A DNA stretch of 63,953 nt from Minisyncoccota bacterium (lineage in GTDB: Bacteria; Patescibacteriota; Minisyncoccia; Phycocordibacterales; CAINVO01): contig JAQTMP010000001.1 of NCBI GenBank assembly GCA_028714275.1, positions 1 to 63,953 of the forward strand. Direction: 5' to 3'. How positions within the stretch are numbered: the first letter of the stretch is position 1; each line of letters starts with the position of its first letter. Positions 1,750-57,551 of the stretch are shown in pieces. Position numbers and translations under genes: made by a program. The notes under the pieces were generated by a model that was not told the origin of the DNA, did no database searches, and was given only the letters and a program-made list of their open reading frames with translations.

Positions 1750-2295
1750 TTATTCATCTTTTTGAATAAACCCTCTTAGTTTATCTAGGTCGATAAACTT
1801 TACTCGCTGAATAAGTTCAATGGATACATGGTTCCTTGTTGAACACACGAGCACCATTTTCCCTTTAATCTTTAACAGATCGACCAACTGAGCAAAATCT
1901 GAATCTCCTGAAAATAAAATAATATCCCTATAATCCTCCCTCCATCTATAGGCATCGAGAGTCAACTCAACGTCAAGATTTCCTTTCTTTAAAATTCCTC
2001 CATCCCTATTTTGAATAATTTTTAACTCTTTTGAATGAATAATGTATCCTGCATTTTGTAGTATTGTTAAAAAACCTTTTTGCTTAGTGTCTTCTGGTGA
2101 AACTCCTGTATAAAAATGGGTAGCAGAGACTATATAGCCAGCTTGTTTTGCTTCAGCTTTTAAATATTCAATAAGTTTTATGTAGTCGACTTTCCAGCCT
2201 AATGTTTTTTGAGAATGATAGATGTTTGAGGCATCTATAAAAACAGCTAGGTCTCCTTTGATGTATTCGTGTATCATGCACACAACAATACACAC
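1750..2295 (-). CDS. NYN/LabA-like (DUF88) domain protein
   Basis: DLAVFIDASNIYH...GNLDVELTLD...ILFSGDSDF pattern typical of NYN/LabA nucleases. The start is probably M7 at 2277. Confidence 0.7.
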   Translation of the reverse strand: MCIVVCMIHEYIKGDLAVFIDASNIYHSQKTLGWKVDYIKLIEYLKAEAKQAGYIVSATHFYTGVSPEDTKQKGFLTILQNAGYIIHSKELKIIQNRDGGILKKGNLDVELTLDAYRWREDYRDIILFSGDSDFAQLVDLLKIKGKMVLVCSTRNHVSIELIQRVKFIDLDKLRGFIQKDE

Positions 2296-2330
2296 CTGAT
2301 CCTCTATTTATATAAATAAAAGATAAATTT

Positions 2331-5078
2331 TTACACAATTTTCACTTCCTCCTTTTTGTACTTTTTCAACACTTCTTCCTCAACTTCTTCCCGAGCACGA
2401 CCAAATTTTAGATACGAAAGCTCTTTTAGCTTGTCCACTAGCTCTGGACGGCCTTTCGGAGGAAAACCGGCCTTTTCAATATTAAATGGACGAGTAGGGC
2501 GACCGTCAACAAGAAGCCGCAGGTATGCATTGTGATTGTCGATATTCATAATATCTTGCGCCGTGAAAACTGGTTCAAATTGCTTAGCCAGAAACTCGGC
2601 ATCATCAGAACCAACACGGTAGACTGCCATCGAGCCGACGTTGCCAAAAACGGAATCTTTGATTTTTTCATCGAGCTGAGCGATAAACTGATGGGCAATA
2701 GTGAGGGAAAGTTTATATTTGCGAGCTTCGGAAAGAATAGTAGAGATGGAATCGGTAGTAATGTTTTGAAACTCATCAATGTACAAATAAAATGGAGGCA
2801 ACGCCGCCTTTCCAAAAGAATCCACGCGGGAAAGAGCAGCCATCAAAATTTTGCCGACAAGAATGAGACCAATGAGGTTGGAGTTGATCGCTCCAAGACG
2901 GCCCTTAGAAAGATTGACCAGCAGGATTTTCTTTTTGTCCATAATATCTCTAAAATCAAAGGCGGAATGTTCCTGAGCAATAATAGGGCGCATGATTTCA
3001 TTGGCCAAAAAGACGTCGAATTTACTGGTGATATATGGCACCATATTTTGAAGAGCGCCCTCCCCTCCAGCTTTTTCCGCGATTTCTCGCCAAAACTGGA
3101 CCACCACCGGATTTTTGCAACGAGCAATTTTGAGATCGCGAAAACTTTTAACGGCCATCACGCGAGACACATCGAGTAATGTGTTGCCGCTCTCAGGATC
3201 TTCGATGACGAGCATTGTGGCATTACGGAAATACTGCTCAAACATCGGACCCATAGACTCAGGCACGGCGCCATAAAGTTTTTGAAAAATACTGAAAAGC
3301 TCATTGACCACAAAAGTTTTCTGCTCCGGAAAATCAAGATTGTATTCGAGCATGTTGAGACCCATTGGGCGAGCAGTGTGGGCAGGATCAAAATAAATCA
3401 CATCTTCATAGCGCTCGGGTGGAATGTTAGCTAAAATATCCTGAACGTCTGAACCGTGCGGATCAATAAAACACACCCCCTCTCCGTTTTTGATATCCTG
3501 GATGATCATATTCTTGAGTAGCGTCGTTTTACCCGTACCTGTCTGACCGATGACATACATATGACGCAAACGATCTTCAGGAGCAATATATATAGGGGTC
3601 TCAAGATTGCGATGCTTGTTGATGCCGAGCAAAATACCTTCGGTGGGCAGACCGAGCGGTGCGGAGGCGGTGCCCGCCTTTGACTGCTTGAGCTGAGGAG
3701 ACGAGGTCACACTTTCCCCTGGAAAGTGCATCAATGAAGTGATTTCCTGCAAGGACAAAGGCATGGCTGAAACCTCTTCAAAGGAACGAAAGGAAAAATC
3801 TCGGATCACTTTTTTCAAGTCCGCAGGACGCTCCGCTCGTTTGAATTTTAAGGTGTTGCCCAGCGTATTTTCAAACTGATTGAAAGAAGACTCTATGTCT
3901 GTCAAAATATCCGCCGCGCGGGCCCGGTTTTCGGCTGAGGCGAGGATGCGGATGTTGGCTTCGACGATCGGGGTGCTGATTTTTAATTTTATATTTTCTA
4001 CTGCAATTTCATCGACAACTTGAGGTTTTTCTTTATCTTTTTCTTTAGGCCCCTTGATCAAGTCTTTCATCAAATCCGCCCCGACCTTGCTAAACTCACC
4101 CAAAAAAGTATGCCTTATATCAATGGCCTTTTTGGTGGACACGCCTTTAGTGATTTCTTTAAGGGCCTCTTTGTAACGGCCAACATAATAAGCCCCTCGA
4201 GGATTTATGACAATTTGGATAGAGGCCCCCTCACCGTCCTTTTTGAGCTTTGAAAGAGTGTTGAGGATGACGTTGAGAGGATCATAGTCAAACTGTTCGT
4301 AGGTCTTGATAGGAAAAATAGGATTTTTTGCTTGAGTAGCAAATGAGCCAAGGGCAATCCCAGCTGGATTGAAGATATTGTAGTCATTTTTCTGCTCGAT
4401 CAGCTTGGCGTCCGGAAAAATAGAGAGGATTTGCTTTTCAAAAAGCGCCGCTTTTTCATCTGGCACCGAAACATAAAAAATAAATTCATGGCTTCCTTCT
4501 CGGACGGCAAGCTCGATCGAAAAATGGTCGTCTCGCGCCCGCGTCTCAACTGAAAGCATGCCGGCATAAAACTGCTCCATTGAGGAAATAAGCTCCTTGA
4601 GCTGTTTTGATTGCTCCTCCTTTTTTACTTCAGGCAAGGCTACTTCAAAAAGAGTGTGCCTAAGCGATTTAGAAAAGGGCGTGCCCTCTTTTAGCCCAGC
4701 GACAGGAAAACCTTTTTTGATGTACTCAACCAAAAAACGATGAAAATCATCCTCGAGATGTGGGTTGTTCATCCCCTCAATCACTGAAAGGACATTCATG
4801 ACGCCTTTCTCATAAAGAATATGCAGCAAAGCCTCAATCTGCTTGTCGTGAGGCTCAGGTGAAAGGTCAAGCACAATCTCATCACGGCTCTGCTCAGGAA
4901 TCTTGAAGGATTCATGAAGGACCTCTGAAGGCTCTGCTGCACGATAGGTCTTCACTTGATGCTTGATCACATGCTCAAGCTTATTTTCGACACCCTGCTC
5001 ATTGAGGGCACGCTCTTTGGCCGCGACTTGTTCGCGTAAATATGTCAGCTCTTCTTGAGGTGAAGAAAACTTTTCCAT
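2331..5078 (-). CDS. Large P-loop ATPase, TraD/VirD4/HerA-FtsK-like (type IV secretion DNA-binding-domain-type)
   Basis: Walker A GQTGTGKTTLL and Walker B-like FYLYIDEFQN in the C-terminal half of a 915-aa ORF. The N-terminal half is unassigned. Confidence 0.65.
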   Translation of the reverse strand: MEKFSSPQEELTYLREQVAAKERALNEQGVENKLEHVIKHQVKTYRAAEPSEVLHESFKIPEQSRDEIVLDLSPEPHDKQIEALLHILYEKGVMNVLSVIEGMNNPHLEDDFHRFLVEYIKKGFPVAGLKEGTPFSKSLRHTLFEVALPEVKKEEQSKQLKELISSMEQFYAGMLSVETRARDDHFSIELAVREGSHEFIFYVSVPDEKAALFEKQILSIFPDAKLIEQKNDYNIFNPAGIALGSFATQAKNPIFPIKTYEQFDYDPLNVILNTLSKLKKDGEGASIQIVINPRGAYYVGRYKEALKEITKGVSTKKAIDIRHTFLGEFSKVGADLMKDLIKGPKEKDKEKPQVVDEIAVENIKLKISTPIVEANIRILASAENRARAADILTDIESSFNQFENTLGNTLKFKRAERPADLKKVIRDFSFRSFEEVSAMPLSLQEITSLMHFPGESVTSSPQLKQSKAGTASAPLGLPTEGILLGINKHRNLETPIYIAPEDRLRHMYVIGQTGTGKTTLLKNMIIQDIKNGEGVCFIDPHGSDVQDILANIPPERYEDVIYFDPAHTARPMGLNMLEYNLDFPEQKTFVVNELFSIFQKLYGAVPESMGPMFEQYFRNATMLVIEDPESGNTLLDVSRVMAVKSFRDLKIARCKNPVVVQFWREIAEKAGGEGALQNMVPYITSKFDVFLANEIMRPIIAQEHSAFDFRDIMDKKKILLVNLSKGRLGAINSNLIGLILVGKILMAALSRVDSFGKAALPPFYLYIDEFQNITTDSISTILSEARKYKLSLTIAHQFIAQLDEKIKDSVFGNVGSMAVYRVGSDDAEFLAKQFEPVFTAQDIMNIDNHNAYLRLLVDGRPTRPFNIEKAGFPPKGRPELVDKLKELSYLKFGRAREEVEEEVLKKYKKEEVKIV

Positions 5079-5086
5079 GAGCTACA

Positions 5087-5812
5087 TTATATACCTCCTT
5101 TGTACTCTTCGTAAGCGACTTTGAAGGGTAGGTTTCTCTCAGCGTATTTTTCGGTTTTTTCAGGATATTGTTCAAAAAAGGCTTTGTATTTTTCTGAAAC
5201 GGCTCTAGCCTTTTTGGACCTCATCTCGTTAAAATTGTTGCCCACAAAGTCTCCATCGTTGATTTCTTTGATTTGGCCCTCCAATTTTTTGACAGCTGGA
5301 TCCTTTTTATAATCTTCATAGACCCGAACTCTTTCAGCCTCGTCATACTCAGCCGCCTCTGTTGGAAAACGTTCTGAAAATATTTCAAAGGCGCGTTCCC
5401 TGCCGCTTTTGACCCTTTTACCATTAACTACGCCATTTTCCATGTAATTGTGAAGGTCCACCTCTCGATTGGGCGCATCCCCAAGGAGCTGTTCCCAGCT
5501 ATATTGAAGCTCCTGCAAAATAGATTCGAAACGCGAGTCCTGCTCTATGTATTTTAGAGTCTCCCGGGCTTCTTTTTTTTGGCCGGCTTTCTCACTTCCC
5601 TCCTCAAAATCTGGGAAAAGAGCCAGCTCTAAGCGCAAATTTTGCAAACGTTTCGCCTCTCGCTCGACGTGGGGATTGACTCTTTTATTTTGAGCAATTA
5701 AAATAGCCTCCCCCAACGGAGCTTGTCTCATTTTTTCGATTTTACCGATTTCGCTCTTTGGAATTTCTTCTTGAAGATTTTCGGAATTTTCCGGAGATTT
5801 CAAACTGTTCAT
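5087..5812 (-). CDS. Hypothetical protein (charged, Glu/Lys-rich)
   Basis: 241-aa ORF co-oriented with and abutting its neighbours. No motif recognised. Confidence 0.45.
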   Translation of the reverse strand: MNSLKSPENSENLQEEIPKSEIGKIEKMRQAPLGEAILIAQNKRVNPHVEREAKRLQNLRLELALFPDFEEGSEKAGQKKEARETLKYIEQDSRFESILQELQYSWEQLLGDAPNREVDLHNYMENGVVNGKRVKSGRERAFEIFSERFPTEAAEYDEAERVRVYEDYKKDPAVKKLEGQIKEINDGDFVGNNFNEMRSKKARAVSEKYKAFFEQYPEKTEKYAERNLPFKVAYEEYKGGI

Positions 5813-5819
5813 GTCTAAA

Positions 5820-6593
5820 TTATAGCACAGTCAAAATTTCTGGGCCTTTTTCGGTGATAACAATAGTGTGTTCGAACTGAGCGCTACGCTTACCATCGGC
5901 TGTTCGATAGGTGTAACCATCACTATCCATAGTAGCGCGAGGGGTACCTTCATTGATGATCGGCTCCACGGCTATGACCATGCCAGGTTTGAGAGCGGGA
6001 CCTTGACCTTTTTTGCCAATATTTGGCACAAAAGGGTCTTCATGTACTTCATAGCCCACTCCATGTCCGCCTAGATTTTCGGCGATACCAAACTTGCTGT
6101 TTTTTTTGACAAAACTTTCAATAGCGAGGCCAATGTCACCGGTGCGGGCGCCCACCTGTGAGGCTTTGATGCCAGCGGCCAAGGCCCCCCGCGTGACGTC
6201 CATGAGCTTTTGGGCGCCCGCGTCTACCTTTCCAACCCCGACAGTCGTGGCGCTATCCACAATCATGTTTTGATACGAAATACCCATGTCCAGAGTGACG
6301 ACGTCGCCCGTTTTCAAGATCCGAGGCCTTTCATTTGGAATACCATGTACAATTTCATCATTGATGGAGACGCAAATGCTTGCAGGATAGGGACGATCGG
6401 CACCATATGGTTGATAATTTAGAAAAACTGGAACCGATTTATATTTTTTACAAAGTTCATTGGCCTTATCATCAATTTCCTTGGTAGAAATACCCTCCAC
6501 AGTTGTCTCTGATAGTTCCTTTAAAATTTGAGCTAGGATTTTCCCTGCCTTTCGGAGTTTTGCGATATCTTCGGGTGTTTTGATAGTAATCAT
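5820..6593 (-). CDS. map: Type I methionine aminopeptidase
   Basis: ICVSINDEIVHGIP, VTLDMG, GHGVGYEVHEDP and EHTIVIT motifs. Canonical position after adk. Confidence 0.95.
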   Translation of the reverse strand: MITIKTPEDIAKLRKAGKILAQILKELSETTVEGISTKEIDDKANELCKKYKSVPVFLNYQPYGADRPYPASICVSINDEIVHGIPNERPRILKTGDVVTLDMGISYQNMIVDSATTVGVGKVDAGAQKLMDVTRGALAAGIKASQVGARTGDIGLAIESFVKKNSKFGIAENLGGHGVGYEVHEDPFVPNIGKKGQGPALKPGMVIAVEPIINEGTPRATMDSDGYTYRTADGKRSAQFEHTIVITEKGPEILTVL

Positions 6594-6605
6594 TGGCTCA
6601 AGGTG

Positions 6606-7262
6606 TTAGATGCGAGAATTGATTTCGTTGATCAAATCACGCTGCACTTTCTCGACTGGCTGTTCGCCATTTATGTGTAAAAAATGATAATTCTCATTTT
6701 CCTTAAAATAATTGATAGCTGGAATAACATCCCGCTGGTACCAGTCTAGGCGTTTCTCAATCATGGCAATATCAATATCGTCCTCACGCCCCCGCGAAAG
6801 CAGGTGCTTACGCGACCATTCGCGACTAACATCCAGGTAAACCACAAAGGGCATTTCTCTTTTATAAAACCTCATGGCTGTATCCAAAATAACCGCTTCC
6901 TCATGAGAACGGGGTGACCCATCGATAATTAGCTGATCTTTAGGGTTGAATTCTCTGATCAAAAGATTGGACCACATCCAGATGGCTAAAAAATCTGGCT
7001 GGCGATTTCCTAAAGCTGACACTTCACTAGCCAATTTATTGGACGAACCCTTTTCGGACATAAAACTCCGGAAATGTAAGCCTGTCTCCAGGTAATACAC
7101 ACTTGTTTGGTTTTCAGGCGCAACAACCTCTCCCGTCTCCTTTTCCATAGCCTCAATCGCTATCTTGTCCTGTTTTATTAAGTGCTCCTTTAGAAGCTCC
7201 GCCTGCGTGCCCTTACCACAGCCTGAGCGGCCTATAAAAATAAAGGTCTGGGGTTGTTTCAT
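6606..7262 (-). CDS. adk: Adenylate kinase-like NMP kinase
   Basis: P-loop FIFIGRSGCGKGTQAELL. Position is after secY. The track ORF extends to 7361, but the ATG at 7262 (MKQPQTFIF...) avoids running into hairpin element A1. Confidence 0.8.
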   Translation of the reverse strand: MKQPQTFIFIGRSGCGKGTQAELLKEHLIKQDKIAIEAMEKETGEVVAPENQTSVYYLETGLHFRSFMSEKGSSNKLASEVSALGNRQPDFLAIWMWSNLLIREFNPKDQLIIDGSPRSHEEAVILDTAMRFYKREMPFVVYLDVSREWSRKHLLSRGREDDIDIAMIEKRLDWYQRDVIPAINYFKENENYHFLHINGEQPVEKVQRDLINEINSRI

Positions 7263-7290
7263 AGGGCTATTATACAGAAATGGAGAAAAA

Positions 7291-7408
7291 TTGGTACCCA
7301 GAAGTAAAGACTTTTTGGAGACACGGAAAATTTTTGCTAAAATTTTCCTTGTCCTCGCCAACGCTTTGGCTGCGGGGTCTCCAAAAAGTCTTTACTTCTG
7401 GGTACCAA
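7291..7408. repeat. Hairpin element family A, copy 1 (perfect 32-bp stem, 54-nt conserved core)
   Basis: Arms 7291-7322 and 7377-7408 are exact reverse complements. The core plus the TTTTTGGAGAC/GTCTCCAAAAA inner arms recur, inverted, at 13149-13251. Confidence 0.85.
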
Positions 7409-7544
7409 TATTCTATCTTATTGACAGATTATCGGCTGATTTGTTAGTATACTTTCACATACAGAGAATCAAGTGATTCCCTGCCGGCCCCGCCCACAAG
7501 GCGGGGAATATTTATTTATAAAAGCAATTTTAAAAATAAAATAA

Positions 7545-7618
7545 AATTCTCCAAAAGACCTTTAGAACGGGTTAGCGAGTCTTCGAGCGCTTTAGTGAGA
7601 AAGGTCTTTTGGAGAATT
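7545..7618. repeat. Hairpin element family B, copy 1 (perfect 19-bp stem, 36-nt loop with conserved core)
   Basis: Arms are 7545-7563 and 7600-7618. The loop core gaacgggttagcgagtcttcgagcgctttagtga recurs at 24360-24393 with 1 mismatch. It ends 1 nt from the secY stop codon. Confidence 0.85.
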
Positions 7619-7619
7619 T

Positions 7620-8897
7620 CTAATACTCCCGCATGGAAATCTGAGCATCTATCTTTTTAACAAGATCGAGAACAACTGAAACCACGATCAAGAGCGCGGT
7701 ACCTCCTACAGCTAGAGATTTTGGCACGCCTGGCACAATCAAAGGCAGGATAACGGGCAAAACCGCGATGACACCGAGAAAGATGGCTCCGACAAGGGTA
7801 ATACGAGTAACTACTTTGGATAAATATTCTGAGGTAGGCTCACCTGGACGAATGCCGGGAATGAAAGCGCCGCCTCGTTGGAGATTGGTAGAAATCATGT
7901 GAGGGTCAAATGTGACAGCAGTATAGAAATACGTAAAGAGGAATACGAGCATAAAATAAGCACCGGCATAGACCCACTGGTTGGCTATGATATTCAAAAT
8001 CTGGGTTGAAATACCACTGATAGTGGCATTGCCGAGATGGCTCAAAAGATTGAAAATCATCTGAGGAAAAAGAAGGATAGAGAGGGCGAAGATGATAGGG
8101 ATCACTCCAGCTTGATTGAGGCGAAGAGGGAGGTAAGTAGAGATACCTCCATAAACCTTGTTGCCCCGAACCCGTTTTGAATAAGTGACAGGGAGTGGGC
8201 GCTCAGCTTCGGTCACGATTACTACTAGATAAATAACCACCAAGGTCATGATAAAGACACCAGTGTACATAGGGATCTGACTCTGGTCGAAGCTAAAGAG
8301 GGTTTGGTTGAGAGCTTGAGGAATCCGAGAGACGATACCTGAAAAGATAATCATCGAAACGCCGTTGCCAATGCCAAACTCTGTCATAAGCTCTCCAACC
8401 CACATGAGGAGAATAGAACCAGAGACGATAGTAATAACGTTGGTGATCAAAGAGATGCCTGACAAAGCTCCCACAACCCCCTGTCGCTCCAAGAGCACAA
8501 TAAAACCAAAAGCCTGGATGAAAGCTAGAGGGACGGTCAAAATACGTGAGTATTGACTAAATTTTTTGCGACCAAGCTCCCCCTCCTCTTGATACATAGC
8601 TTTGAGAGTTGGAGACATCATGGTCAAAAGCTGCATGATAATAGAAGCCGTGATATAAGGACCAACACCAAGCATCACAATAGAAAGGGTAGAAAGTCCT
8701 CCACCGGAAAAGACGTTGAGCAAACCAAAAAATTGGTTGCTATTAAAAAATATATTGAGCTTGGCAATATCTACACCTGGGATTGGCACTGCAGCAAGAA
8801 GACGAAAAACTACAAGTGAGCCAAGCATAAAAAGGACTCGGTTGCGCAAAGTCCGATCTTGGATGACCAACTTACATTTTTCGATAAAAGTATTCAT
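7620..8897 (-). CDS. secY: Preprotein translocase subunit SecY
   Basis: 425-aa polytopic membrane protein, follows rplO as in spc operons. Confidence 0.95.
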   Translation of the reverse strand: MNTFIEKCKLVIQDRTLRNRVLFMLGSLVVFRLLAAVPIPGVDIAKLNIFFNSNQFFGLLNVFSGGGLSTLSIVMLGVGPYITASIIMQLLTMMSPTLKAMYQEEGELGRKKFSQYSRILTVPLAFIQAFGFIVLLERQGVVGALSGISLITNVITIVSGSILLMWVGELMTEFGIGNGVSMIIFSGIVSRIPQALNQTLFSFDQSQIPMYTGVFIMTLVVIYLVVIVTEAERPLPVTYSKRVRGNKVYGGISTYLPLRLNQAGVIPIIFALSILLFPQMIFNLLSHLGNATISGISTQILNIIANQWVYAGAYFMLVFLFTYFYTAVTFDPHMISTNLQRGGAFIPGIRPGEPTSEYLSKVVTRITLVGAIFLGVIAVLPVILPLIVPGVPKSLAVGGTALLIVVSVVLDLVKKIDAQISMREY

Positions 8898-11433: not shown

Positions 11434-11619
11434 TTACCAAGATGATTTTTTGATGCCCGGGATACGGCCTTCGTTGGCAGCTTCACGAAAACAAATACGG
11501 CAAAGCCCAAAATCACGCATAAAAGCGTTTTTTCGTGAGCATCGAAAACAACGTCGCACCACGCGAGACGCGAATTTTGGTGTTTTTAATGCCCTTACTC
11601 TAGTTGATGTTTTTGCCAT
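11434..11619 (-). CDS. rpsN: 30S ribosomal protein S14, zinc-binding short (type Z) form
   Basis: 61 aa with CFRC...CRIC pairs. Confidence 0.9.
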   Translation of the reverse strand: MAKTSTRVRALKTPKFASRVVRRCFRCSRKNAFMRDFGLCRICFREAANEGRIPGIKKSSW

Positions 11620-11711
11620 AATGTGTAAAAAAATAGCTCACTTGAGCGTTCGCTTATACTAGCAGGGACCCAATATAAAGTCAATAATTTCCCTCCCAAG
11701 TCCTATTAGGG

Positions 11712-11969
11712 TCAATATAGTTCGGAATGGGTCCCTATTGTGATAAATATGACCAGATCAGCCTCAATCATAAGAATGGCCCTATAATCCCCTGTTATAT
11801 TGATACTCCGGCAATCGGGAAACGCCCTATCCACAGAATGCTTGTTTAGGACTGGATCAAACTGGTTTTTGTGAAAAACCTCTAATCTTCGGTAAAACTG
11901 CGTTTTTATTTTGCTTGGAAGCTTCTTAAATTTCTTAGTAAAGTGTTTTTTGTATCTGATCTGCAGCAT
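11712..11969 (-). CDS. RelE/YafQ-family type II toxin (mRNA interferase), copy 1
   Basis: 85 aa ending IGTHSELY, with an upstream small antitoxin ORF. Paralogous to 26684-26941. Confidence 0.7.
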   Translation of the reverse strand: MLQIRYKKHFTKKFKKLPSKIKTQFYRRLEVFHKNQFDPVLNKHSVDRAFPDCRSINITGDYRAILMIEADLVIFITIGTHSELY

Positions 11970-11985
11970 TTCTTACAAATTTATT

Positions 11986-12264
11986 TTACAAACTCTTGAG
12001 ATAAGCTACAGCCTCATTGGTACTATTAAAGCTTGGGGATATATCTTTGCCTTCTTTGATATCCTTGATTTCACGAATAAGCATGGCTCGTGTCTGAGCG
12101 CTTATTTTCTGTTGTGAAACTAGGCCAATATCAAGCTGCCCATCAACAAAAGCCTTGGTAGCCAGCTTAAGCACAGAAGAAAATGGAATCCCCTCATTTT
12201 GGGCCTTTTTCATAGCTTTCTCCTTAAGTTTACTATTTATATTAAAAATTATTTGTGTGTTCAT
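11986..12264 (-). CDS. DinJ/RelB-like antitoxin, copy 1
   Basis: 92 aa. MNTQIIFNINSKLKEKAMKKAQNEGIPFSSVLKLATKAFV fits a ribbon-helix-helix antitoxin N-terminus. It lies 16 nt upstream of the toxin. Confidence 0.65.
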   Translation of the reverse strand: MNTQIIFNINSKLKEKAMKKAQNEGIPFSSVLKLATKAFVDGQLDIGLVSQQKISAQTRAMLIREIKDIKEGKDISPSFNSTNEAVAYLKSL

Positions 12265-12309
12265 TGGTTTTTTTGTTTGTCATACATTATCGTCTATTGA
12301 GACGTATAT

Positions 12310-12338
12310 ATCTTATATATATTACAGATATATGTCAA
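12310..12338 (-). promoter_or_regulatory. Candidate sigma70-like promoter of TA module 1 (TTGACA - 17 nt - TAAGAT) inside an imperfect AT-rich inverted repeat
   Basis: The minus strand reads TTGACATATATCTGTAATATATATAAGAT. The inverted repeat is GACATATATCT/AGATATATACGTC. Confidence 0.3.
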
Positions 12339-12605
12339 CAAAGCATTTTTCCTTACGAAACATCTAGGGTATACTTAGATTAATACGCCTTATGTAGCTA
12401 CTATGAGTAAAAAGAGTCTTTGGATATTTGGATACTTTGTTTCTTAATCTTTTCCTATACCCTATTTTTGGCATAATTTTCCTTGTTGCTGGTATTTTTT
12501 TGATTCGCTCGAGGTGATATTTATTCGAACATTCTCCCGGGTGCGCAGCCGAATAAAGTAATGCTGAGGTATTGAACTGTTAAGAAAACTTGACTAAATA
12601 ATAAT

Positions 12606-13079
12606 TTGATTGTATCTTTTGATTTAGAAAACCGTTCAACAAGCAAAAGGATACAAATTATGTCCAAAGCATTTATGAAACGTGGAAGTGAGCGTCAGGC
12701 TCTCCACGAAGAAGCACACAAAGATATTTACAGACTCGAGGAAACATCTGAAGAATGGGCGAAGAACGGGCACAAGGCCTGCGCCTATCTAGCCCAAATA
12801 ATTATTGCCTACCTCTTCGGTAAAAACATGTCTCACCTTTCTAGTACTAGACGTGAACGGTACGAGCTGGTGGCTGAGGAGCTTTTTCAAAAGGTAACCC
12901 TTCGCCGCTATGCAACCTTCGCCAGAGCTGAAGAAGAAGAAAAAGCAATGCTTGCAGAATTTGCACTTTGGCTGATCGAAAGTCAGGCATTGTGTCAGTT
13001 TCCGCATGATCTTGCACGCATTGAAATATGCGATCCTCAGACAATTTTTCGGGCGCCCTCGGCTATGTCTGAAGTATAA
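12606..13079 (+). CDS. Hypothetical protein (opposite strand to the ribosomal operon)
   Basis: 157-aa ORF; a more likely start is MSKAFMKRG at 12660. It is followed by a good terminator. No motif recognised. Confidence 0.5.
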   Translation: MIVSFDLENRSTSKRIQIMSKAFMKRGSERQALHEEAHKDIYRLEETSEEWAKNGHKACAYLAQIIIAYLFGKNMSHLSSTRRERYELVAEELFQKVTLRRYATFARAEEEEKAMLAEFALWLIESQALCQFPHDLARIEICDPQTIFRAPSAMSEV

Positions 13080-13135
13080 AACCCGCCACTCAACCCAGGA
13101 ACCCATCCTGCCAGTTGAGGGTGGGTTTTCTGTTT
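13078..13135 (+). terminator. Rho-independent terminator of the 12606-13079 gene
   Basis: Stem aaaacccgccactcaac / gttgagggtgggtttt, followed by a T-run. Confidence 0.55.
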
Positions 13136-13148
13136 AAACAGTTGCGCT

Positions 13149-13251
13149 AAATAAATAGTGGTTTTTGGAGACCCCGCAGCCAAAGCGTTGGCGAGGATAA
13201 AGAAAATTTCAGCAGAAATTTTCTGTGTCTCCAAAAACCACTATTTAGTTT
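13149..13251. repeat. Hairpin element family A, copy 2 (inverted relative to copy 1)
   Basis: Arms are 13149-13172 and 13227-13251 (1 mismatch). The core equals the reverse complement of the copy 1 core with 5 differences, 4 of which form two compensatory pairs. It ends 3 nt from the rplE stop. Confidence 0.85.
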
Positions 13252-13254
13252 GGG

Positions 13255-13800
13255 CTATTTTTTGAAAAGAAAACCCAACTTCTCCAACATCGCCCGAGTA
13301 AGTTTTTTATCCTTTGAAGTAGTTACGATAGTAACCGCAAAACCAAAGACATCTTTGAGCTCTTCATCTGAAGTTTCAGGAAAGACGGTGTGCTCTTTAA
13401 CCCCAATGGTAAAGTTGCCCATAGCGTCAATGGCTTCTGGCTTGAGGCCACGGAAGTCACGGGTACGAGGGAGAGCAATGTTTACAAGCTTATCAAGAAA
13501 GCTATACATACGGTCACCACGGAGAGTGACCTGATAGCCGACAGGATCGCCTTCTCGCACCTTGAAGGTAGCGATTGATTTTTTGGCGGCTTTCTCAGCC
13601 ACTTTCTGACCAGTGATCTTTGTAAGACGGTCGCCGATAAGTTTCTTCTTGTTGGCATCTTTGACCGAGCCAGTGGCCGAACCAATGACAACTTTGACGA
13701 GCTGAGGAGCTTCCATCTTGTTTTTAAAACCAAAATCTCCTTTCATTTCATCAAAAAGAGCTTTTTCTTTATCTTTTATAGTGTGTGATTGTGTTTTCAT
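13255..13800 (-). CDS. rplE: 50S ribosomal protein L5
   Basis: ATFKVREGDPVGYQVTLRGDRMYSFLDKLVNIALPRTRDFRG. Confidence 0.9.
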   Translation of the reverse strand: MKTQSHTIKDKEKALFDEMKGDFGFKNKMEAPQLVKVVIGSATGSVKDANKKKLIGDRLTKITGQKVAEKAAKKSIATFKVREGDPVGYQVTLRGDRMYSFLDKLVNIALPRTRDFRGLKPEAIDAMGNFTIGVKEHTVFPETSDEELKDVFGFAVTIVTTSKDKKLTRAMLEKLGFLFKK

Positions 13801-21180: not shown

Positions 21181-21370
21181 ATGTTTTAAAATTATTTATA
21201 ATTATTAATAAATTTTGCTAACAATTTTTGCACTGATGCTGCAAGTTTGGCTTATTTCTTGTCTCTTTCGTAGACAAAAAAAGGCGCAAAACGCGATACG
21301 GGTCATCATAGCAAACCTTGTTAGAAAGTCAAATCTTAAAGCCCTTCCTGCGTAATTATCTTTCTTACAA

Positions 21371-21483
21371 GCAAGCCTGTAGGTGACCTTTTGAGGAACT
21401 CACGGAGGACGACGGTCCGAGTGGGAGGAAAAAAGTCAGCAGACTTTTTATCCGTGTCCGAAAAAGGTCACCTACAGGCTTGC
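21371..21483. repeat. Hairpin element family C, copy 1 (perfect 22-bp stem, 69-nt loop with conserved 58-nt core)
   Basis: Arms are 21371-21392 and 21462-21483. Imperfect complementarity continues outward to about 21352/21497. The core recurs at 27324-27381. Confidence 0.85.
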
Positions 21484-21525
21484 CTATAAGAGAATTATGA
21501 GTAGTATGTCTTTTAGAGAAATCAA

Positions 21526-24307: not shown

Positions 24308-24347
24308 CCAATTTTAAAGTATTGTAGAAAATAGAAATAAAAAAACA

Positions 24348-24405
24348 GGAAGGCCTCTCGAACGGGTTAGCGAGTCATCGAGCGCTTTAGTGAGAGAGGC
24401 CTTCC
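24348..24405. repeat. Hairpin element family B, copy 2 (12-bp GC-rich stem flanked by A/T runs, 34-nt conserved loop)
   Basis: Arms are ggaaggcctctc (24348-24359) and gagaggccttcc (24394-24405). The loop matches copy 1 except for 1 nt. It ends 6 nt from the fusA stop codon. Confidence 0.85.
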
Positions 24406-24411
24406 TTTTTT

Positions 24412-26556
24412 TTATTTGCTTCTATTTTCTACAATAGTCTTCTCCACATTTGGAGGGACCACATCGTAGTGGTCAAATTCCATGGTAGCTGAACCTCGTC
24501 CAGCGGTCATAGAACGAAGAGAGGTAGTATAGCCGAACATTTCTGACAATGGCACCATCGCCTTGATGGCTTTATTCATACCGCGATCTTCCATGCCTTC
24601 GATCTGAGCCCGCTTGGCTGAAAGTGAGCCAGTGATGTCTCCCATGAACTGTTCTGGGGTGACCACTTCTACCTTCATGATCGGCTCGAGGATGACAGGG
24701 CGAGCTTTTTTAGCGGCTTCTTGAAAGGCTTGAGAACCGGCAATCTTGTACGCGATTTCGGATGAGTCCACATCGTGATAAGAACCAAAGTTCAAATCAC
24801 AAGAAACGTTGACCATTTTAAATCCAGCCACAATCCCGCGCTCCATCGCTTCGCGAACGCCTTTTTCAACAGCAGGAATAAATTCTTGAGGAATAACCCC
24901 TCCTTTAATATTATCGATAAATTCAAAGTCATCGTAGCGCTTGACATTTTTTGGCACTTTGGCGCCCTCTTCCAATTTTTCAAGAGGTTTGATAGCAATT
25001 TTGACGTGGCCATACTGACCTTTACCTCCAGACTGCTTAATATATTTGTGTTCTGCTTCCGCACTGCCAAGAATAGTCTCTCGATAGGCCACTTGAGGTT
25101 TACCCACGTTGGCTTCTACGCCGAACTCACGCTTCATACGATCCACCATGATTTCAAGATGAAGCTCACCCATACCTGAGATGATAGTTTCCATTGTTTC
25201 GGGGTTGGTTGAGATGCGGAAAGTTGGATCCTCGTCTCCCAATTTTTTAAGAGCCATACCCATTTTTTCTTGATCCGCTTTGGTTTTTGGTTCGATACGG
25301 AGGGAAACCACAGGCTCGGCAAACTTAATAGGGTCGAGCACAATGGGATGATTTTCATCACAAAAAGTATGGGAGGTTTTGGCTTCCTTTAGACCTACAG
25401 CTGCCGCAATTTCTCCGGCAAAAACCTTTTTTACTTCTTCACGCTTGTCGGCTTGAAGGCGCACGATACGGCCAAGACGCTCCTTGTTGCCAGTGGTCGA
25501 GTTGTATAAATATGAGCCGGCTTCGACAGTCCCTGAATAAACACGGAAGAAGGTAAGCTGCCCGACAAACGGATCTGATTGGAGCTTGAAAGCCAAAGCA
25601 GCAAAAGGCTCGCTGTCAGAAGCGTGGCGAACAATCACATCTCCAGTGTTTGGATCGATACCTTGGATTGGGGGAACATCAAGAGGTGAAGGAAGATACT
25701 CCACGACGGCATCAAGGACAAGTTGAACCCCGCGATTCTTCAAAGCCGAGCCGGTAAAGACTGGGAAGATTTTGTTGGCAATCACTCCTTTACGCAAAGT
25801 TGCTTTGAGTTCCTCAATAGTAAACTCGCCGCCTTCGAGGTAACGATTCATCAAGTCTTCATCGAGCTCAACGATCTTTTCAACAAGCTCGGCGCGATAT
25901 TTTTTGGCATCTTCGAGATGAGTAGCTGGGATTTCCATTTCGCGGACATCAATACCCATATCTCCCTCGAAAGCGTAGGCCTTCATTTTCAAAAGATCGA
26001 TAACAGCTTCAAATTTGTCTTCTTCGCCAATAGGCAGCTGCATCCGGACAGCACTTTTATTGAGACGGTCAAGAATAGACCTGAAGGAACGTTCAAAAGA
26101 ACCTCCTGTGCGGTCAAGCTTGTTGATAAAACAAATGCGGGGCACATGATACTTGTCGGCTTGACGCCACACTGTTTCAGATTGAGGCTCTACTCCGGCC
26201 ACACCGTCAAAGACCACCACCCCTCCGTCGAGCACTTTGAGAGAACGCTCCACCTCCACGGTAAAGTCCACGTGTCCTGGTGTGTCAATAATATTAAAAC
26301 GATGTTTCTTGGACTGGTCCTTGCCCATATAGCTTGGATTCCAAAAACAGGTAATAGCAGCAGCTGTAATAGTGATGCCTCGTTCTTTTTCCTGTTCCAT
26401 CCAGTCAGTGACAGCTTCACCTTCATGCACTTCACCAATCTTGTGGCTCATGCCTGTGTAATAAAGAATGCGCTCAGACGTAGTGGTCTTGCCAGCGTCG
26501 ATGTGAGCAATGATACCAAAGTTTCGGGTTTTTTCGAGTGAATAGTCGCGTTCCAT
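24412..26556 (-). CDS. fusA: Elongation factor G
   Basis: [20 protein letters not shown] and NKLD motifs. 714 aa. Confidence 0.98.
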
Positions 26557-27281: not shown

Positions 27282-27296
27282 GTAACGTAGTAGTAT

Positions 27297-27409
27297 AAAA
27301 AAACAAAAAACCTCTTGAAGGAGACTCGCGGAGGACGACGGTCCGAGCGTGAGGAAAAAAGTCAGCAGACTTTTTATCCGTTCTCCTGAAAGAGGTTTTT
27401 TGTTTTTTT
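27297..27409. repeat. Hairpin element family C, copy 2 (perfect 20-bp A/T-rich stem, 73-nt loop)
   Basis: Arms are 27297-27316 and 27390-27409. The 58-nt core differs from copy 1 at 3 positions, two of which are a compensatory pair. It ends 3 nt from the rpsG stop. Confidence 0.85.
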
Positions 27410-27412
27410 AAA

Positions 27413-27883
27413 TTACCAAGCCAGGTGGGCAAAAGCCTTGTTGGCCTCGGCCATTTTGTGAGTGTTTTCGCGCTTTTTGACCGCTTCACCTTCGTTTTTG
27501 GATGCGAGGATGATTTCATCAGCAAGCTTGAGATGCATTGGCTGACCCTTTTTAGCTCGAGCAGCGAGAATGATCCATTTCATAGAAAGATGGCTGCGGC
27601 GCTCAGGTCGAACTTCACGGGGAACCTGATAGTTGGCGCCACCAACTCGGCGGGAGCGGACTTCCATAGCCGGAGCGGTGTTGTTGAGAGCTGTATCAAA
27701 AACTTCGAGAGGATTTTCAACTTTTTCCTTTTCTTTAATGGCATCAAAAGCGCCATAGACAATAGCGCGGGCGGCATTTTTCTTGCCTCGTTCCATGACG
27801 TAGTTTACAAACTTCTCAATCTTTTCAGATTTGAAAACTGGATCTGGCTTGACGATATTTCGATTTTTAACTTTTCTTCGCAT
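27413..27883 (-). CDS. rpsG: 30S ribosomal protein S7
   Basis: EVRSRRVGGANYQVPREV...MAEANKAFAHLAW. Confidence 0.95.
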   Translation of the reverse strand: MRRKVKNRNIVKPDPVFKSEKIEKFVNYVMERGKKNAARAIVYGAFDAIKEKEKVENPLEVFDTALNNTAPAMEVRSRRVGGANYQVPREVRPERRSHLSMKWIILAARAKKGQPMHLKLADEIILASKNEGEAVKKRENTHKMAEANKAFAHLAW

Positions 27884-30690: not shown

Positions 30691-30790
30691 ATTTGATTGT
30701 TAAGTGCCTGCGCACTTTTCTCAGAATTCTAAAAGAATAGAATGCTAGGAAAAGTGCTGGAATAGAGGGCAAGGCCATATTCCAGCATGA

Positions 30791-34472: not shown

Positions 34473-34831
34473 ATTTATCAGAACACTACAAGGAAAACCT
34501 ATCCTACATTTCTAGAGCACAACATGTGCCCAAAGCTCCATTTCGGTAACTTTTTCGAAATACAGGACAAGTGTCTTGCAGTGTATTCTAGATATAACAC
34601 TTGTTACGTTCAGAATACACTACAAGACCTCCAGCAAACCCACCATCTCTACCTGCATCTGTTTTAATCAATGAACTCTTTATCTGATATAAGTATAGCA
34701 TATCCAGTTTATTTGTCAAGCACAATGCAATACTAAACCCTTATATATAAGCCTATTTTCACCACGATATTGACAATATCCAGTAAAGCCTATAATATAA
34801 GGCTATTATTGTTATACATATAAAACACTTT

Positions 34832-45715: not shown

Positions 45716-46153
45716 ATGCTAAAAAATATCCCTTATATTACCGACCCAGATTGCCTTTTTTGTAAAATCATTGAGGGCTCAATTTCATCATATAAAGTCT
45801 ACGAAGATGCTGACACTTATGCTTTTCTGGATATCAATCCAAACAATCACGGCCACACCCTAGTAGTGCCAAAAGATCATTTTGAAAATATTTATGGCAC
45901 CCCAGATGAAACTCTCTGTCGTACCATGATCACAGCCCGGAAAGTCGCCATCGCAGTCAAAAACGCCCTAAATGCAGACGGGGTAAACATTAACATCAAC
46001 AACGAAACGGCGGCTGGCCAAATAATTTTTCATACTCACATTCATATTATTCCTCGTTTCAATAATGACGGTTTCAAACACTGGGCCCAAAAAAGCTACC
46101 TCCCTGGCGAAGCCGAAAGCGTCTTAGAAAAGATAAAAGAAAAACTTAAATAA
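45716..46153 (+). CDS. HIT-family (histidine triad) nucleotide hydrolase
   Basis: CLFCKII...FLDINP.N.GHTLVVPK...HTHIHIIPR. Confidence 0.9.
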   Translation: MLKNIPYITDPDCLFCKIIEGSISSYKVYEDADTYAFLDINPNNHGHTLVVPKDHFENIYGTPDETLCRTMITARKVAIAVKNALNADGVNININNETAAGQIIFHTHIHIIPRFNNDGFKHWAQKSYLPGEAESVLEKIKEKLK

Positions 46154-46271
46154 AATTAAGAGCCCTTTCGGGAGCACGGATAAATCCTTGCTAGGATTTT
46201 CCTCGTGCTCGCTCCGTCGAGCCTCGCAAGTCTCCCTCAAGGGTTCTTAATTTTATTTAAGTTTTTCTTTT
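46135..46271. repeat. Hairpin element family D, copy 1 (31-bp stem with one G-T, ~75-nt conserved core)
   Basis: Arms are 46135-46165 and 46241-46271. The 5' arm contains the last 5 codons plus stop of the HIT gene, and the 3' arm reaches the pgk stop codon. The core recurs at 55551-55620. Confidence 0.85.
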
Positions 46272-47412
46272 ATTTTAGCGCTTCAATTCCGACTAACGTC
46301 TCATCCAAAAGATATTGCAACATCGCACCGCCGCCAGTAGAAATAAAACTAATTTTTGACTCAGCTTTTTCCCCGAGAGAGCTAATAGCGGCCAGAGTAT
46401 CTCCCCCGCCCACCACCGCTTCTAAAGAGCCGTCCGCATCTGAAATAATTTTAGCCAGCTCAATAGTCGGCTCCGTAAAACCAAGCTCATAATTTCCGAG
46501 TGGACCATTCCACAAAACACATTTTGATTCACCAATCATGGTCTGCAGCATAGACATGGTTTCGGGACCTGCATCCATAATGACGTCTGCGTCACCCACT
46601 TGGTCTGATTTCTTGGCTGAAACAGCCTGAGTATTTTTATCCTGCACGATGACATCTGTCGGGACCAAAAGCCTGGTGTCCGCTACTATATCTGTGACCG
46701 AAAAATCTCCACCTGAGACAAGCGATGCTCCGACATTCCATCTGCGCGCCTTAAAAAGATTGTTGGCCAAAGCTCCTCCCACAAAAACATGGTCAGCCAA
46801 CGTTAAAAACTTTTGAATCAAAGGGAGTTTGGTGTCAAACTTAGCGCCGCCTAAAATAAACAAAAAAGGATGAGGGGGGTGAAATATTTTTTTGAGATGG
46901 TTGATCTCGTCAGACAAAAGCAGCCCAGCATAGTGAGGTAAAAATTCGGGTACCCCCACTATCGAAGCATGTGATCGGTGTGAGACAGAAAAAGCATCAT
47001 TCACGTAGATGTCTGCAAAACCAGCTAGTTTTTTAGAAAATTCTCGATCATTCTTTTTTTCTTCTGGGTATTGGCGGATATTTTCGACGAGAATGATATC
47101 TCCGTCCGCCATAGAAGACATTTCGGCTAAACTTTCTTTGCTAAAAATATCTTCAACAAAAGTTAAAGGAAAAATCTTCATTAAATAATCATAGATAGGC
47201 CGCAGGGAATCTCCGCCCTTGCCTTCAATGTGACTAATGAGGATAATCTTTGCCTTTTGATTGCGTAAAAACTCAATAGTCGCAAGGCTTTTTTTGATTC
47301 GGGTGTCTCCAGTGATTTTACCGTTTTCGATGGGGACATTAAAATCTACCCGCACAAGTACTTTTTTACCGGCAAGGGATTCCAAGGTGGTGATGGATTT
47401 TGGGATGAGCAT
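46270..47412 (-). CDS. pgk: Phosphoglycerate kinase
   Basis: RVDFNVP, ISH.GKG, NDAFSVSHR and STGGGA motifs. Confidence 0.95.
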   Translation of the reverse strand: MLIPKSITTLESLAGKKVLVRVDFNVPIENGKITGDTRIKKSLATIEFLRNQKAKIILISHIEGKGGDSLRPIYDYLMKIFPLTFVEDIFSKESLAEMSSMADGDIILVENIRQYPEEKKNDREFSKKLAGFADIYVNDAFSVSHRSHASIVGVPEFLPHYAGLLLSDEINHLKKIFHPPHPFLFILGGAKFDTKLPLIQKFLTLADHVFVGGALANNLFKARRWNVGASLVSGGDFSVTDIVADTRLLVPTDVIVQDKNTQAVSAKKSDQVGDADVIMDAGPETMSMLQTMIGESKCVLWNGPLGNYELGFTEPTIELAKIISDADGSLEAVVGGGDTLAAISSLGEKAESKISFISTGGGAMLQYLLDETLVGIEALK

Positions 47413-55467: not shown

Positions 55468-55530
55468 AAATAGGGTGAAAAAGTATTTTCATATATATTG
55501 TATCAAATTTTTAGGGGCAAGAGAATGAAA

Positions 55531-55640
55531 CTATCAGTCTAAAGTCTCTTTCGGGAGCACGGATAAATCCTTGCTAGGATTTTCCTCGTGCTCGCTCCGT
55601 CGAGCTCGCAAGTCTCCCTCAAGAGACTTTAAACTGATGG
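55531..55640. repeat. Hairpin element family D, copy 2 (20-bp stem with 2 mismatches)
   Basis: Arms are 55531-55550 and 55621-55640. The 3' arm is the last 6 codons of the DGR RT gene (HQFKVS). The core differs from copy 1 by a 1-nt indel. Confidence 0.85.
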
Positions 55641-56620
55641 TTAGCGACCTTTTTCTGCAACTTCCCTGTGTTTCCATGACTTAAAAGCCCTAGATAAGAT
55701 TGGATTACCTCCTTTTTTGTGTCTTTGTGGATATTCCTAAACATCCTTTTCTTGGTGGTGGTCCGTAAAACTCGATGAGTGGGAAAATGTACCCATCCTA
55801 AAAAATCAACGCCTGATGAAAAGGTTTTGAGATAGATTTTATCCGGATGAAGCGAAAGTTTCAGATTTTCGTATAAAAATTGGGAAATTTTTGGAAGAAC
55901 TTTGAGCAATGTGTCTTTATCGTGGTGCATGATCACAAAGTCATCAGCGTAGCGAATATAGTGTTTCTGTTTTAGTTCGTGTTTTACGAACTGATCAAAT
56001 TCGTTCATATAGATATTTACAAGAAGCTGAGAAGTTAGGTTGCCGAGAGGTAACCCCTTACCTTCTCCTATAGACTGAAAGCTATCGATAATTTGGATTA
56101 GCAACCATAAAACGTCCTTATCTTTCAGATACATGTCTAGTATGTCAATTAGTACCTCGTGATCGACAGATGCGAAAAATTTTCTGATATCGCACTTGAG
56201 TATCCAAAGTGTCTTCCTGTTATTCTTGCTCGCCTTGTACCCGTATTTCCTAAACTGCTGCACGGCTTTATGGGTTCCCTTTCCAAACCGACACGAATAC
56301 GAATCTGATATAAATGTCCTGTTAAAGAAAGAATGAAGTTTACGATAAATTGCGTGGTGCAATAGTCTGTCACGAACACTGGCTTTATGAATATTTCTTG
56401 GCTTTGGATCGGATATATTGAACGCTTCATACGGAAGATGAACGTAAGTTTTGTCTTTTAATTCTAGGTGAAGAGCAATGATATTACTCATCAGATTTCT
56501 TTGAAATTCCTGTACATCTTTTCTGCCCTTTTTGCCGTTTATAAACTCCTCCCATGCTTCGAGCAAATTTTCTAGAGAAATGATATCGTTGTAACTACTA
56601 TCAGAAGTAATTAAAGCCAT
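55619..56620 (-). CDS. DGR-type reverse transcriptase
   Basis: RT motifs include YADDFVI and the DGR-diagnostic LPLGNLTSQLLVNIYMNEFD ((I/L)GxxxSQ). The gene is adjacent to avd and a TR/VR pair. Confidence 0.9.
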   Translation of the reverse strand: MALITSDSSYNDIISLENLLEAWEEFINGKKGRKDVQEFQRNLMSNIIALHLELKDKTYVHLPYEAFNISDPKPRNIHKASVRDRLLHHAIYRKLHSFFNRTFISDSYSCRFGKGTHKAVQQFRKYGYKASKNNRKTLWILKCDIRKFFASVDHEVLIDILDMYLKDKDVLWLLIQIIDSFQSIGEGKGLPLGNLTSQLLVNIYMNEFDQFVKHELKQKHYIRYADDFVIMHHDKDTLLKVLPKISQFLYENLKLSLHPDKIYLKTFSSGVDFLGWVHFPTHRVLRTTTKKRMFRNIHKDTKKEVIQSYLGLLSHGNTGKLQKKVANHQFKVS

Positions 56621-56623
56621 TCT

Positions 56624-57028: not shown

Positions 57029-57033
57029 GAGAG

Positions 57034-57440: not shown

Positions 57441-57551
57441 GGAAGATTTTCTCGTCAGAAATGAATCTGGGCGATAGGTGTATCTTGCCTTAACTTTTTG
57501 CGCCGAAGGACAAAGTTCAAAGGGTCTAAGGAGACCACAGTGGACAAGTCC

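Follow-up and report, generated by a model that had tools for sequence, protein, structure and literature searches.

The window analysed here is a stretch of 63,953 nt (positions 1-63,953, forward strand, of contig JAQTMP010000001.1, assembly GCA_028714275.1) from a Minisyncoccota bacterium, in which copies of a hairpin-forming repeat, here called family A, lie next to genes such as secY, adk, rplE, rpsG and pgk. We built a covariance model, R1, from copies of the element and searched it against the window, against loci derived from the Genome Taxonomy Database (GTDB) and against the rplE loci of relatives. An earlier note on this DNA had recognized only two copies (copies 1 and 2); in the window, R1 matched exactly six, at 61-91 bits, and nothing else above noise. 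An inverted-repeat scan likewise found four further long hairpins beyond copies 1 and 2, with loops of 56-59 nt that align to the family A cores (ACGGA(T)AAA-stem-TGCT-stem-TTTTCCT...CTCG-hairpin). The six copies form three subtypes (A1, A2 and A3) of two copies each, their orientations are divided three and three, and within one subtype the shared part consists of the core and 10-11 bp of inner arm only:

7290-7409, minus strand: copy 1, subtype A1 (R1 match 7309-7390, minus strand, 65.1 bits), between secY (7620-8897, minus strand) and adk (start at 7262, minus strand).
13117-13282, plus strand: copy 2, subtype A1 (R1 match 13159-13240, plus strand, 61.2 bits); its right arm enters the native 3' end of rplE (stop codon 13255-13257).
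21363-21491, plus strand: A3 copy (arms 21363-21397 / 21457-21491, 89% complementary; core 21398-21456; 68.4 bits), between tuf (minus strand) and a pheA/tyrA-like gene (plus strand).
27290-27416, plus strand: A3 copy (arms 27290-27324 / 27382-27416; core 27325-27381; 71.2 bits), immediately 3' of the rpsG (S7) stop codon and before a RelB-like open reading frame (ORF).
46130-46276, minus strand: A2 copy (45-nt arms 46130-46174 / 46232-46276, 91% complementary; core 46175-46231; 81.3 bits), between the convergent HIT (plus strand) and pgk (minus strand) genes.
55529-55642, minus strand: A2 copy (arms 55529-55557 / 55614-55642; core 55558-55613; 91.4 bits); its right arm contains the last 7 codons of a reverse transcriptase gene of the diversity-generating retroelement (DGR) type, whose TGA stop lies in the conserved inner arm.

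The two A1 copies were the basis of the original observation, most of which held when the sequence was read directly. The arms of copy 1 are indeed perfect complements, over 33 bp (7290-7322 / 7377-7409) and not the 32 bp first given, and they enclose a core of 54 nt (7323-7376). Copy 2, first placed at 13149-13251, is inverted and has a different outer stem, as had been stated; its perfect 21-bp arms (13152-13172 / 13227-13247) span 13152-13247, and they extend imperfectly out to 13117 / 13282, with 82% over 56 nt in the inverted-repeat scan. Its core (13173-13226) is the reverse complement of the copy 1 core; the right half of the core, 29 nt, is identical in the two copies, for a chance expectation of 0 matches. 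The cores differ at 5 of 54 positions (G3A with C26T, T12C with A17G, and G30A), and the first four of these changes make up two compensatory pairs, both in the AT-rich hairpin, just as the earlier note had them. The inner arms TTTTTGGAGAC / GTCTCCAAAAA occur only four times, always at the inner-arm positions of copies 1 and 2. The predicted fold has a closing stem and two hairpins, one of 10 bp with UGCU/AGCA as its loop and one reading GCCAA-CGCU-UUGGC, in agreement with the two core hairpins described before (an AT-rich one of 10 bp with TGCT/AGCA, and GCCAA-CGCT-TTGGC). Closing stem and two hairpins are predicted for each strand of both copies (z of -8 to -15 relative to shuffled sequences); the folding energy of copy 1 (7287-7412) is -73.9 kcal/mol on the plus strand and -73.0 kcal/mol on the minus strand, compared with about -25 kcal/mol for shuffled sequences (z about -15).

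Across all copies, the conserved unit measures about 76-80 nt and consists of inner inverted repeats (a T-run and GGAG...CTCC and an A-run) around a core of 54-59 nt. Full elements are 80-170 nt long, multi-copy and devoid of an ORF of their own, which is the size and coding content of a miniature inverted-repeat transposable element (MITE). In the single-stranded state, the core is predicted to fold into a Y-shaped three-way junction made of a closing stem (P1) and two hairpins (P2 and P3). P2 has 10 bp, one bulged base and a loop of 4 nt (GGA(U)AAA-stem-UGCU-stem-UUUUCC). P3 is a G+C-rich hairpin with a tandem G.A/A.G mismatch (U.C/C.U on the other strand); its loop is frequently C(A)GUC and its tip accommodates insertions of up to about 240 nt. 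On the strand opposite ACGGA, the consensus reads ttt..GAG-n-C UnGCGAG..CGA.GG..CGAGCnCG A GGAAaattt-AGCA-aaattT(A)TCC GUG CUC..aaa. In a MAFFT alignment of 49 copies, 25 of the 31 pairs have changed on both sides and 92% of cells are paired; in the R1 alignment of 136 copies, double changes are found in all 31 pairs and 93% of cells are paired, against 66% in shuffled controls and 44-56% when the partners are slid. The compensatory changes seen in the two A1 cores thus extend to the family as a whole.

Many Saccharibacteria and Paceibacteria copies are of a longer form, equally conserved, in which an asymmetric internal loop (GUCGAA / GAGAAA, on the strand of the consensus) divides two extra helices; TCGCTC is present on both arms of other copies. 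In the metagenome-assembled genome (MAG) binchicken_co16_374, each of the four copies (L008, L021, L040, L064) has a further conserved module (..AAATCTTCCTGCGGACTC.CCTCG..) to the right of the element, so that the repeat unit there exceeds the hairpin. A different conserved hairpin, ATTCGCTTTTGA.TACAAAAGCTC, follows the element in three Taylorbacteria loci (L013, L070, L115).

The distribution of the element reaches far beyond the window. A search of the GTDB species set with the pattern ACGGATAAA-N3-7-TGCT-N3-7-TTTTCCTC gave at least 120 matches, and among those listed about 110 are true copies, often several per MAG. The named hosts of true copies, again among the matches listed, all belong to the candidate phyla radiation (CPR)/Patescibacteria, and include Saccharibacteria, Parcubacteria/Paceibacterota, Taylor-, Lloyd-, Vogel-, Zambryskii- and Berkelbacteria, and Minisyncoccia; the remainder come from unnamed MAGs. 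Nine pattern matches in other phyla lack the remaining parts of the element and were discarded as chance matches. In 100 of the loci obtained from the listed matches (711 kb), R1 found 136 copies, at a density of one per 1-2 kb on some of these contigs, and the further copies in related CPR genomes that the earlier note had suggested looking for therefore exist in number. By contrast, R1 had no match in 63 orthologous rplE loci (611 kb), taken from the nearest relatives available. The many CPR copies, together with their absence from these rplE loci, indicate a wide but patchy distribution. Those same loci were the candidates for an empty site: none has the element, and with only 59-74% identity in L5 even the closest are too distant at the nucleotide level for its reconstruction.

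No match to the pattern was found in IMG/VR, and a phage origin was rejected on this ground. Rfam 15 gave no match at gathering score over the whole window, and this applies to the hammerhead, twister, twister-sister, pistol, hatchet and hepatitis delta virus-like ribozymes among the known RNA families; at E ≤ 10, on 7250-7650, only weak look-alikes of microRNA precursors appeared, caused by the long stem. There is no tRNA or tmRNA in the window. Full-text searches of open papers yielded no description of such an element in CPR. Family A is thus an apparently undescribed family of small non-coding palindromic repeats in CPR genomes.

The outer stems are private within this window, as had been noted, and at two copies they can be compared with the genes that they enter. 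At the copy 46130-46276, positions 46130-46153 are the last 7 codons and the stop of the HIT gene and are native: the C-terminus (...EKIKEKLK) is conserved, 12 homologues ending alike (...GEAE..(A/L)(E/K)KI(K/R)..L..). Positions 46253-46276 are the reverse complement of this segment at 23 of 24 bases, and the right arm of the copy is therefore an inverted copy of its left flank. One arm of copy 2 enters the conserved end of rplE (...LGFLFKK*), and the opposite arm mirrors it at 25 of 36 positions, in fixed register, over the outer 36 nt; judged from this sequence comparison, the stem of copy 2 likely consists of native flank and an inverted copy of that flank. Private stems are not selected base by base. 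A short inner repeat would let a nascent strand, or one that is broken or resected, fold back and copy its own flank, and such fold-back priming, or intramolecular template switching at a quasi-palindrome, may be the source of the stems. Fold-back copying would turn single stem mutations into "compensatory" pairs. It would explain why perfect stems are unrelated from copy to copy, why the 33-bp stem of copy 1 is free of mismatches though the A1 cores differ by 9%, and why single mutations appear so frequently as clean double changes. Hairpins extended by folding back could then move whole, as in MAG C24 described below, whose copies have common arms and 7-bp duplications.

Two intergenic hairpins of the window have no core: one at 34573-34628, with 27-nt arms and a 2-nt loop, and one at 30712-30757, with 20-nt arms and a 6-nt loop. 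These may be terminators of the usual kind, or target sites of the element, or remnants of copies that have lost their core.

The statistics of strand and orientation bear on how the covariation arose. The orientation of the element relative to flanking genes is unbiased (same 29, opposite 22, convergent 16, divergent 16), and both strands fold equally well. About 2.6% of cells are G-U pairs; P2 contains hardly any, for all its double changes, which are often exchanges of U-A to C-G and U-A to A-U. An RNA under selection that changed through point mutations ought to show more G-U intermediates than this. The earlier note had argued from the compensatory pairs for selection on structure. The covariation is real, but it would also result if the DNA hairpin itself served as the template for correction or copying, and the data fit such templating, given the near-absence of G-U pairs, the equal folding of the strands, the random orientation and the stems that are inverted flank copies. 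The T-run lies on the 5' arm in both orientations and no U-tract follows the hairpin on its 3' side. An intrinsic terminator was rejected on the basis of the A+T-rich stems of 20-45 bp, the T-run on the 5' arm and the random orientation.

Some copies lie inside genes. We scanned 10 candidate ORFs, and 7 of 7 insertions within Pfam-supported genes are open and in register, the frame running through the whole hairpin in genes for Fpg, a SpoU methylase, KsgA, Dus, RNase HII and ComEC; an open frame in register would be needed only if the insert is translated. Genic insertions occur in both orientations of the element, and in Dus two species have the identical insertion site with opposite orientations. 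When Fpg and Dus were aligned to solved structures, inserts of 57 and 69 residues, respectively, coincided exactly with the element. The forward frame gives a recurrent peptide (...TDK(S/I)LL.FSS...) in Fpg, SpoU, RNase HII, the Dus of locus L024 and an unannotated ORF of L092, and the reverse frame gives another (...EEKASRLLSV...) in KsgA and the Dus of L111. Within genes, the only insertions that survive are those that keep the frame and lack stops, and they appear to be translated. Five same-strand gene pairs that tightly flank elements all turned out to be complete, unrelated genes, and nothing therefore points to genes interrupted by an insert that is not translated. An intron or intervening sequence was rejected on these grounds, genic copies being in frame and none of the five tight pairs being halves of one gene.

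The L111 Dus (5063-6757, minus strand) has a second insertion of about 100 residues (residues ~320-425) relative to Thermotoga maritima Dus (1vhn residues 176-186). R1 does not match it, and it may be another inserted element.

Direct signs of insertion come from the MAG C24_metabat.bin.140, in which six copies have common arms, each about 35 nt in length, whose tips can be told apart (CCAGACC... and ...GGAAGC). Exact direct repeats of 7 bp, always placed at the same boundary, border three of the six (AGCGCTT at L031, GAGTTTT at L056 and ATAATTA at L050), and those of a fourth, L068, match at 5 of 7 positions. The tips are asymmetric, and relative to them the interior of L050 and of L068 is inverted. 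Outside the elements, the C24 arm sequences do not occur in the element loci. Long arms common to several copies were also found in the MAGs CH-Oct18-75 and SRP150892_co2_467. In the window, AATTAT direct repeats (21354-21359 / 21493-21498, a 6/7 match) border the copy at 21363-21491 and are a possible target duplication. These observations do not bear out the earlier view that family A is the opposite of a MITE: long arms are common to copies in other CPR genomes, exact 7-bp target-site duplications accompany three of the six copies of one MAG, and some copies sit in frame within genes, which is a habit of mobile DNA of the MITE and Rickettsia palindromic element (RPE) type.

On balance, we think it probable that the element is a non-autonomous mobile palindromic DNA repeat of CPR/Patescibacteria, of the MITE class and most like the RPEs. 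Its copies lie, in either orientation, just 3' of stop codons, within operons and occasionally within genes. The fold of the core is probably recognized by a trans-acting enzyme in a single-stranded intermediate, and recognition of this kind would explain a fold kept phylum-wide while its surroundings vary. In transcripts, the long hairpins may be substrates for double-strand-specific RNases or act as 3' stabilizers.

Several results weigh against mobility as the explanation. An automated test on 127 copies showed no excess of target duplications over controls, and none is present at five of the six window copies. A general target-site duplication was in fact rejected by two automated tests without excess, the 6-mers of the first being the TCGCTC motif on both arms; no TA or other fixed target was found for the element either. 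No transposase or other candidate mobilizing gene was found in the window or adjoining elements, and no autonomous relative with matching ends in the element loci. Exact-protein look-ups for strain-level insertion polymorphism matched only the same sample or nothing. Selfish DNA would not usually have a core so well conserved across a very deep phylum, nor long-form copies whose asymmetric internal loops are conserved as well; this may point instead to an RNA activity or to a function for the host. Finally, mismatches are strand-biased (G.U 100 versus A.C 51; G.A 101 versus C.U 26), which indicates that one strand is favoured and is not predicted by a purely double-stranded mechanism; that one strand is favoured also indicates that a single-stranded state matters.

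Two candidate sources of mobility were tried and discarded. Copies without a nearby closing arm, which might have been autonomous master copies, have P3 insertions (up to about 240 nt, with no ORF) or mismatched arms. The DGR reverse transcriptase beside the copy at 55529-55642 is a chance adjacency: a homologue was found near 1 of 120 element loci, and an Avd homologue near 0 of 120.

A different explanation, which we regard as unlikely, is a host-selected cis-acting RNA structure that marks transcript boundaries through RNase III-type processing, 3' stabilization or protein-dependent termination. Such a role would suit the position of most copies, which start a few nucleotides past a stop codon in operon spacers (secY/adk, rplE/next, S7/next, scpA/scpB), the contigs with a copy per 1-2 kb, and stems of 20-45 bp that would be ideal as double-stranded RNA. 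The phylum-wide covariation and conservation of the core point the same way, as do the purine-rich mismatches and G.U pairs that favour one strand, and RNases are known to cleave Correia and ERIC elements in transcripts (PMC10969869). However, the favoured strand is the sense strand only about half the time, and copies in divergent spacers are as frequent as those in convergent ones. The hairpin is followed by no U-tract and keeps its T-run on the 5' arm either way, the orthologous operons of relatives lack the element altogether, and in-frame copies occur in conserved enzymes, where a processing signal would harm.

Very improbable, in our estimate, is a structural DNA site, that is, a cruciform or single-strand hairpin bound by a host protein for chromosome organization, replication/repair or DNA uptake, and spread by gene conversion. 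Parts of its stems are conserved as sequence and not just as pairs (GGAWAAA/TTTTCC, GCTCG/CGAGC, and TCGCTC on both arms), suggesting recognition by a protein, both strands fold and orientation is random; CPR are, moreover, naturally competent, and ComEC and type IV pilus genes are present in the window. Against this, the genic insertions and the 7-bp duplications of C24 indicate insertion events, the absence from relatives speaks against an essential chromosomal role, and the mismatch statistics favour one strand.

It seems to us very unlikely that the element is an active RNA, be it a small ribozyme, an intervening sequence or the product of a small RNA gene, in which P1 would hold the flanks together and the Y-shaped core would drive its own cleavage or excision, so that insertions in operons and ORFs would be phenotypically silent. 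The same low standing applies to the related proposal that the core is not a passive site of recognition but an active module, such as a new small ribozyme or a hairpin-like intervening sequence, that releases itself, or is released by cutting and religation, from transcripts or single-stranded DNA at the base of P1; this would explain how operons and essential genes of a minimal genome came to be populated superphylum-wide with no obvious transposase. A variable closing helix, a conserved three-way junction with conserved nucleotides in junction and loop and a P3 of variable length are typical of small-ribozyme architecture, copies do occur within essential genes, and no known family was matched. 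Yet all seven insertions in Pfam-supported genes are open and in register, none of the five candidate split-gene pairs is truly split, and random orientation means that half of the copies would show the wrong strand. G-U pairs are scarce, both strands fold equally, and no promoter or terminator is associated with the element.

Palindromic chimeras produced by the assembler can practically be set aside: De Bruijn contigs from the same sample do break within the hairpins, but the architecture recurs in over 100 loci, drawn from dozens of independent assemblies, and copies lie in frame in conserved genes, and Logan contigs hold the junction of arm and core. Both Logan contigs concerned (L121 and L185, from a separate assembly of run SRR22315509) carry an outer arm and break within the hairpin, and L121 continues from the arm into the core up to the first hairpin loop. 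The hairpins are therefore not assembler chimeras, and the artefact of chimeric stems, which the earlier note had raised as a possible refutation, was not borne out.

If the element is indeed a mobile palindromic repeat, its nearest counterparts are the RPEs, which are small hairpin-forming non-coding repeats found between genes or in frame in housekeeping genes, where they add a peptide (PMC10969869). Family A resembles them, by description only, in its size (about 100-150 bp), its reduced host genome, its intergenic and in-frame genic copies with a conserved peptide and the lack of an associated known transposase. It differs from them in its CPR host phylum and in spanning a superphylum instead of one genus, and also in its conserved three-way-junction core with variable arms, which can be inverted copies of the local flank. 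To our knowledge, the mode of spread of RPEs is still unsolved.

Correia/NEMIS, ERIC, RUP and BOX elements likewise have hairpin-forming terminal inverted repeats and many copies near gene ends. In Correia elements, the interior can invert relative to the ends (PMC10969869), as it does here in L050 and L068; target duplications, here of 7 bp in one MAG, would be a further likeness to Correia elements and MITEs, and the transcripts of both kinds of element are probably RNase III substrates. MITEs differ in that their termini are conserved and their interior variable, the reverse of the situation in this window; no related autonomous insertion sequence was found in the loci searched, and target duplications are not general.

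Folded single-strand palindromes with strand-specific mismatches, high copy number and no coding content are also known from the repetitive extragenic palindromes (REPs) and REPINs, which depend on RAYT (HUH Y1), and from the ends of IS200/IS605. REP families carry GTAG or CGTC as a tag (PMC3733652), to which the frequent C(A)GUC of the P3 loop may be compared. REPs are simple hairpins of 20-40 nt, with a tag at the foot, and strictly extragenic, whereas the element studied here has 76-80 nt, is branched and is in some cases genic; moreover, transposition of the HUH type leaves no target duplication.

The attC site of integrons is a folded single-strand recombination site in which structure matters over sequence and extrahelical or mismatched bases mark the strand. 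In attC, the base (R and L boxes) is conserved, the top is variable and the arrays have one orientation; here the top is conserved and the base variable. Identity with attC was rejected, as the copies are scattered among housekeeping genes in both orientations. As a lead only, the terminal hairpins of parvoviruses and adeno-associated virus combine a long stem with two small hairpins, flip/flop inversion and stem repeats of the GAGC/GCTC type. These are linear viral telomeres that use rolling-hairpin replication and an HUH Rep, unlike the internal chromosomal insertions described here; no Rep-like gene was seen.

CPR/Patescibacteria have genomes that are among the smallest and most streamlined of all bacteria, and their mobile DNA is poorly known. 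Family A would provide a second independent case, after the RPEs of Rickettsia, of palindromic selfish DNA living in protein-coding genes, and its presence in many deep lineages, together with the availability of cultivable Saccharibacteria, offers material in which to seek a mobilizing activity. The perfect "compensatory" stems also call for caution in structure prediction, as they can arise by fold-back copying of a flank with no selection on RNA structure. Hairpins of this kind break short-read assemblies and add inserts of 40-65 residues to annotated enzymes, and CPR annotation may mistake them for structured RNAs or terminators.

A second type of hairpin, family B, lies at 7544-7619 and 24320-24436 of the window, with a conserved loop of 34-36 nt ((A/C)GAACGGGTTAGCGAGTC(T/A)TCGAGCGCTTTAGTGAG) and private stems. 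The stem right after secY is a perfect one of 20 bp; that after fusA is G+C-rich and terminator-like, with A- and T-runs alongside. The CGAG-UCUU-CGAG hairpin of family B looks like a small version of the P3 of family A, and the family B core GGGTTAGCGAGTCNTCGAGCGC has no copy in the other 184 loci. Between the two families, antisense to the secY-adk spacer, 7422-7515 (plus strand) holds a promoter-like TTGACA-N17-TAGTAT followed about 40 nt on by a CCCCGCC-cacaa-GGCGGGG hairpin and a T-rich run; this site may give a small transcript.

At 11450-13110, the ribosomal protein operon is broken after rplE by small ORFs with no Pfam matches, one of which (157 residues, 12606-13079, plus strand) is on the opposite strand to the operon and has its own terminator hairpin (13081-13133); in relatives, rpsN directly follows rplE. 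Positions 55619-58300 form a DGR, with the reverse transcriptase at 55619-56620 (minus strand) and a bAvd-like gene at 56624-57028 (plus strand) that starts 3 nt from the reverse transcriptase start, on the opposite strand. A pair of 132-nt repeats with 85% identity (57034-57165 / 57568-57699) represents its template and variable repeat, the second lying in an unannotated ORF. Lastly, 1750-5078 encodes a protein of 915 residues with motifs of HerA/VirD4/TraG-like coupling ATPases, which adjoins a gene for an NYN-domain nuclease; these genes may be part of a DNA-transfer or defence module.

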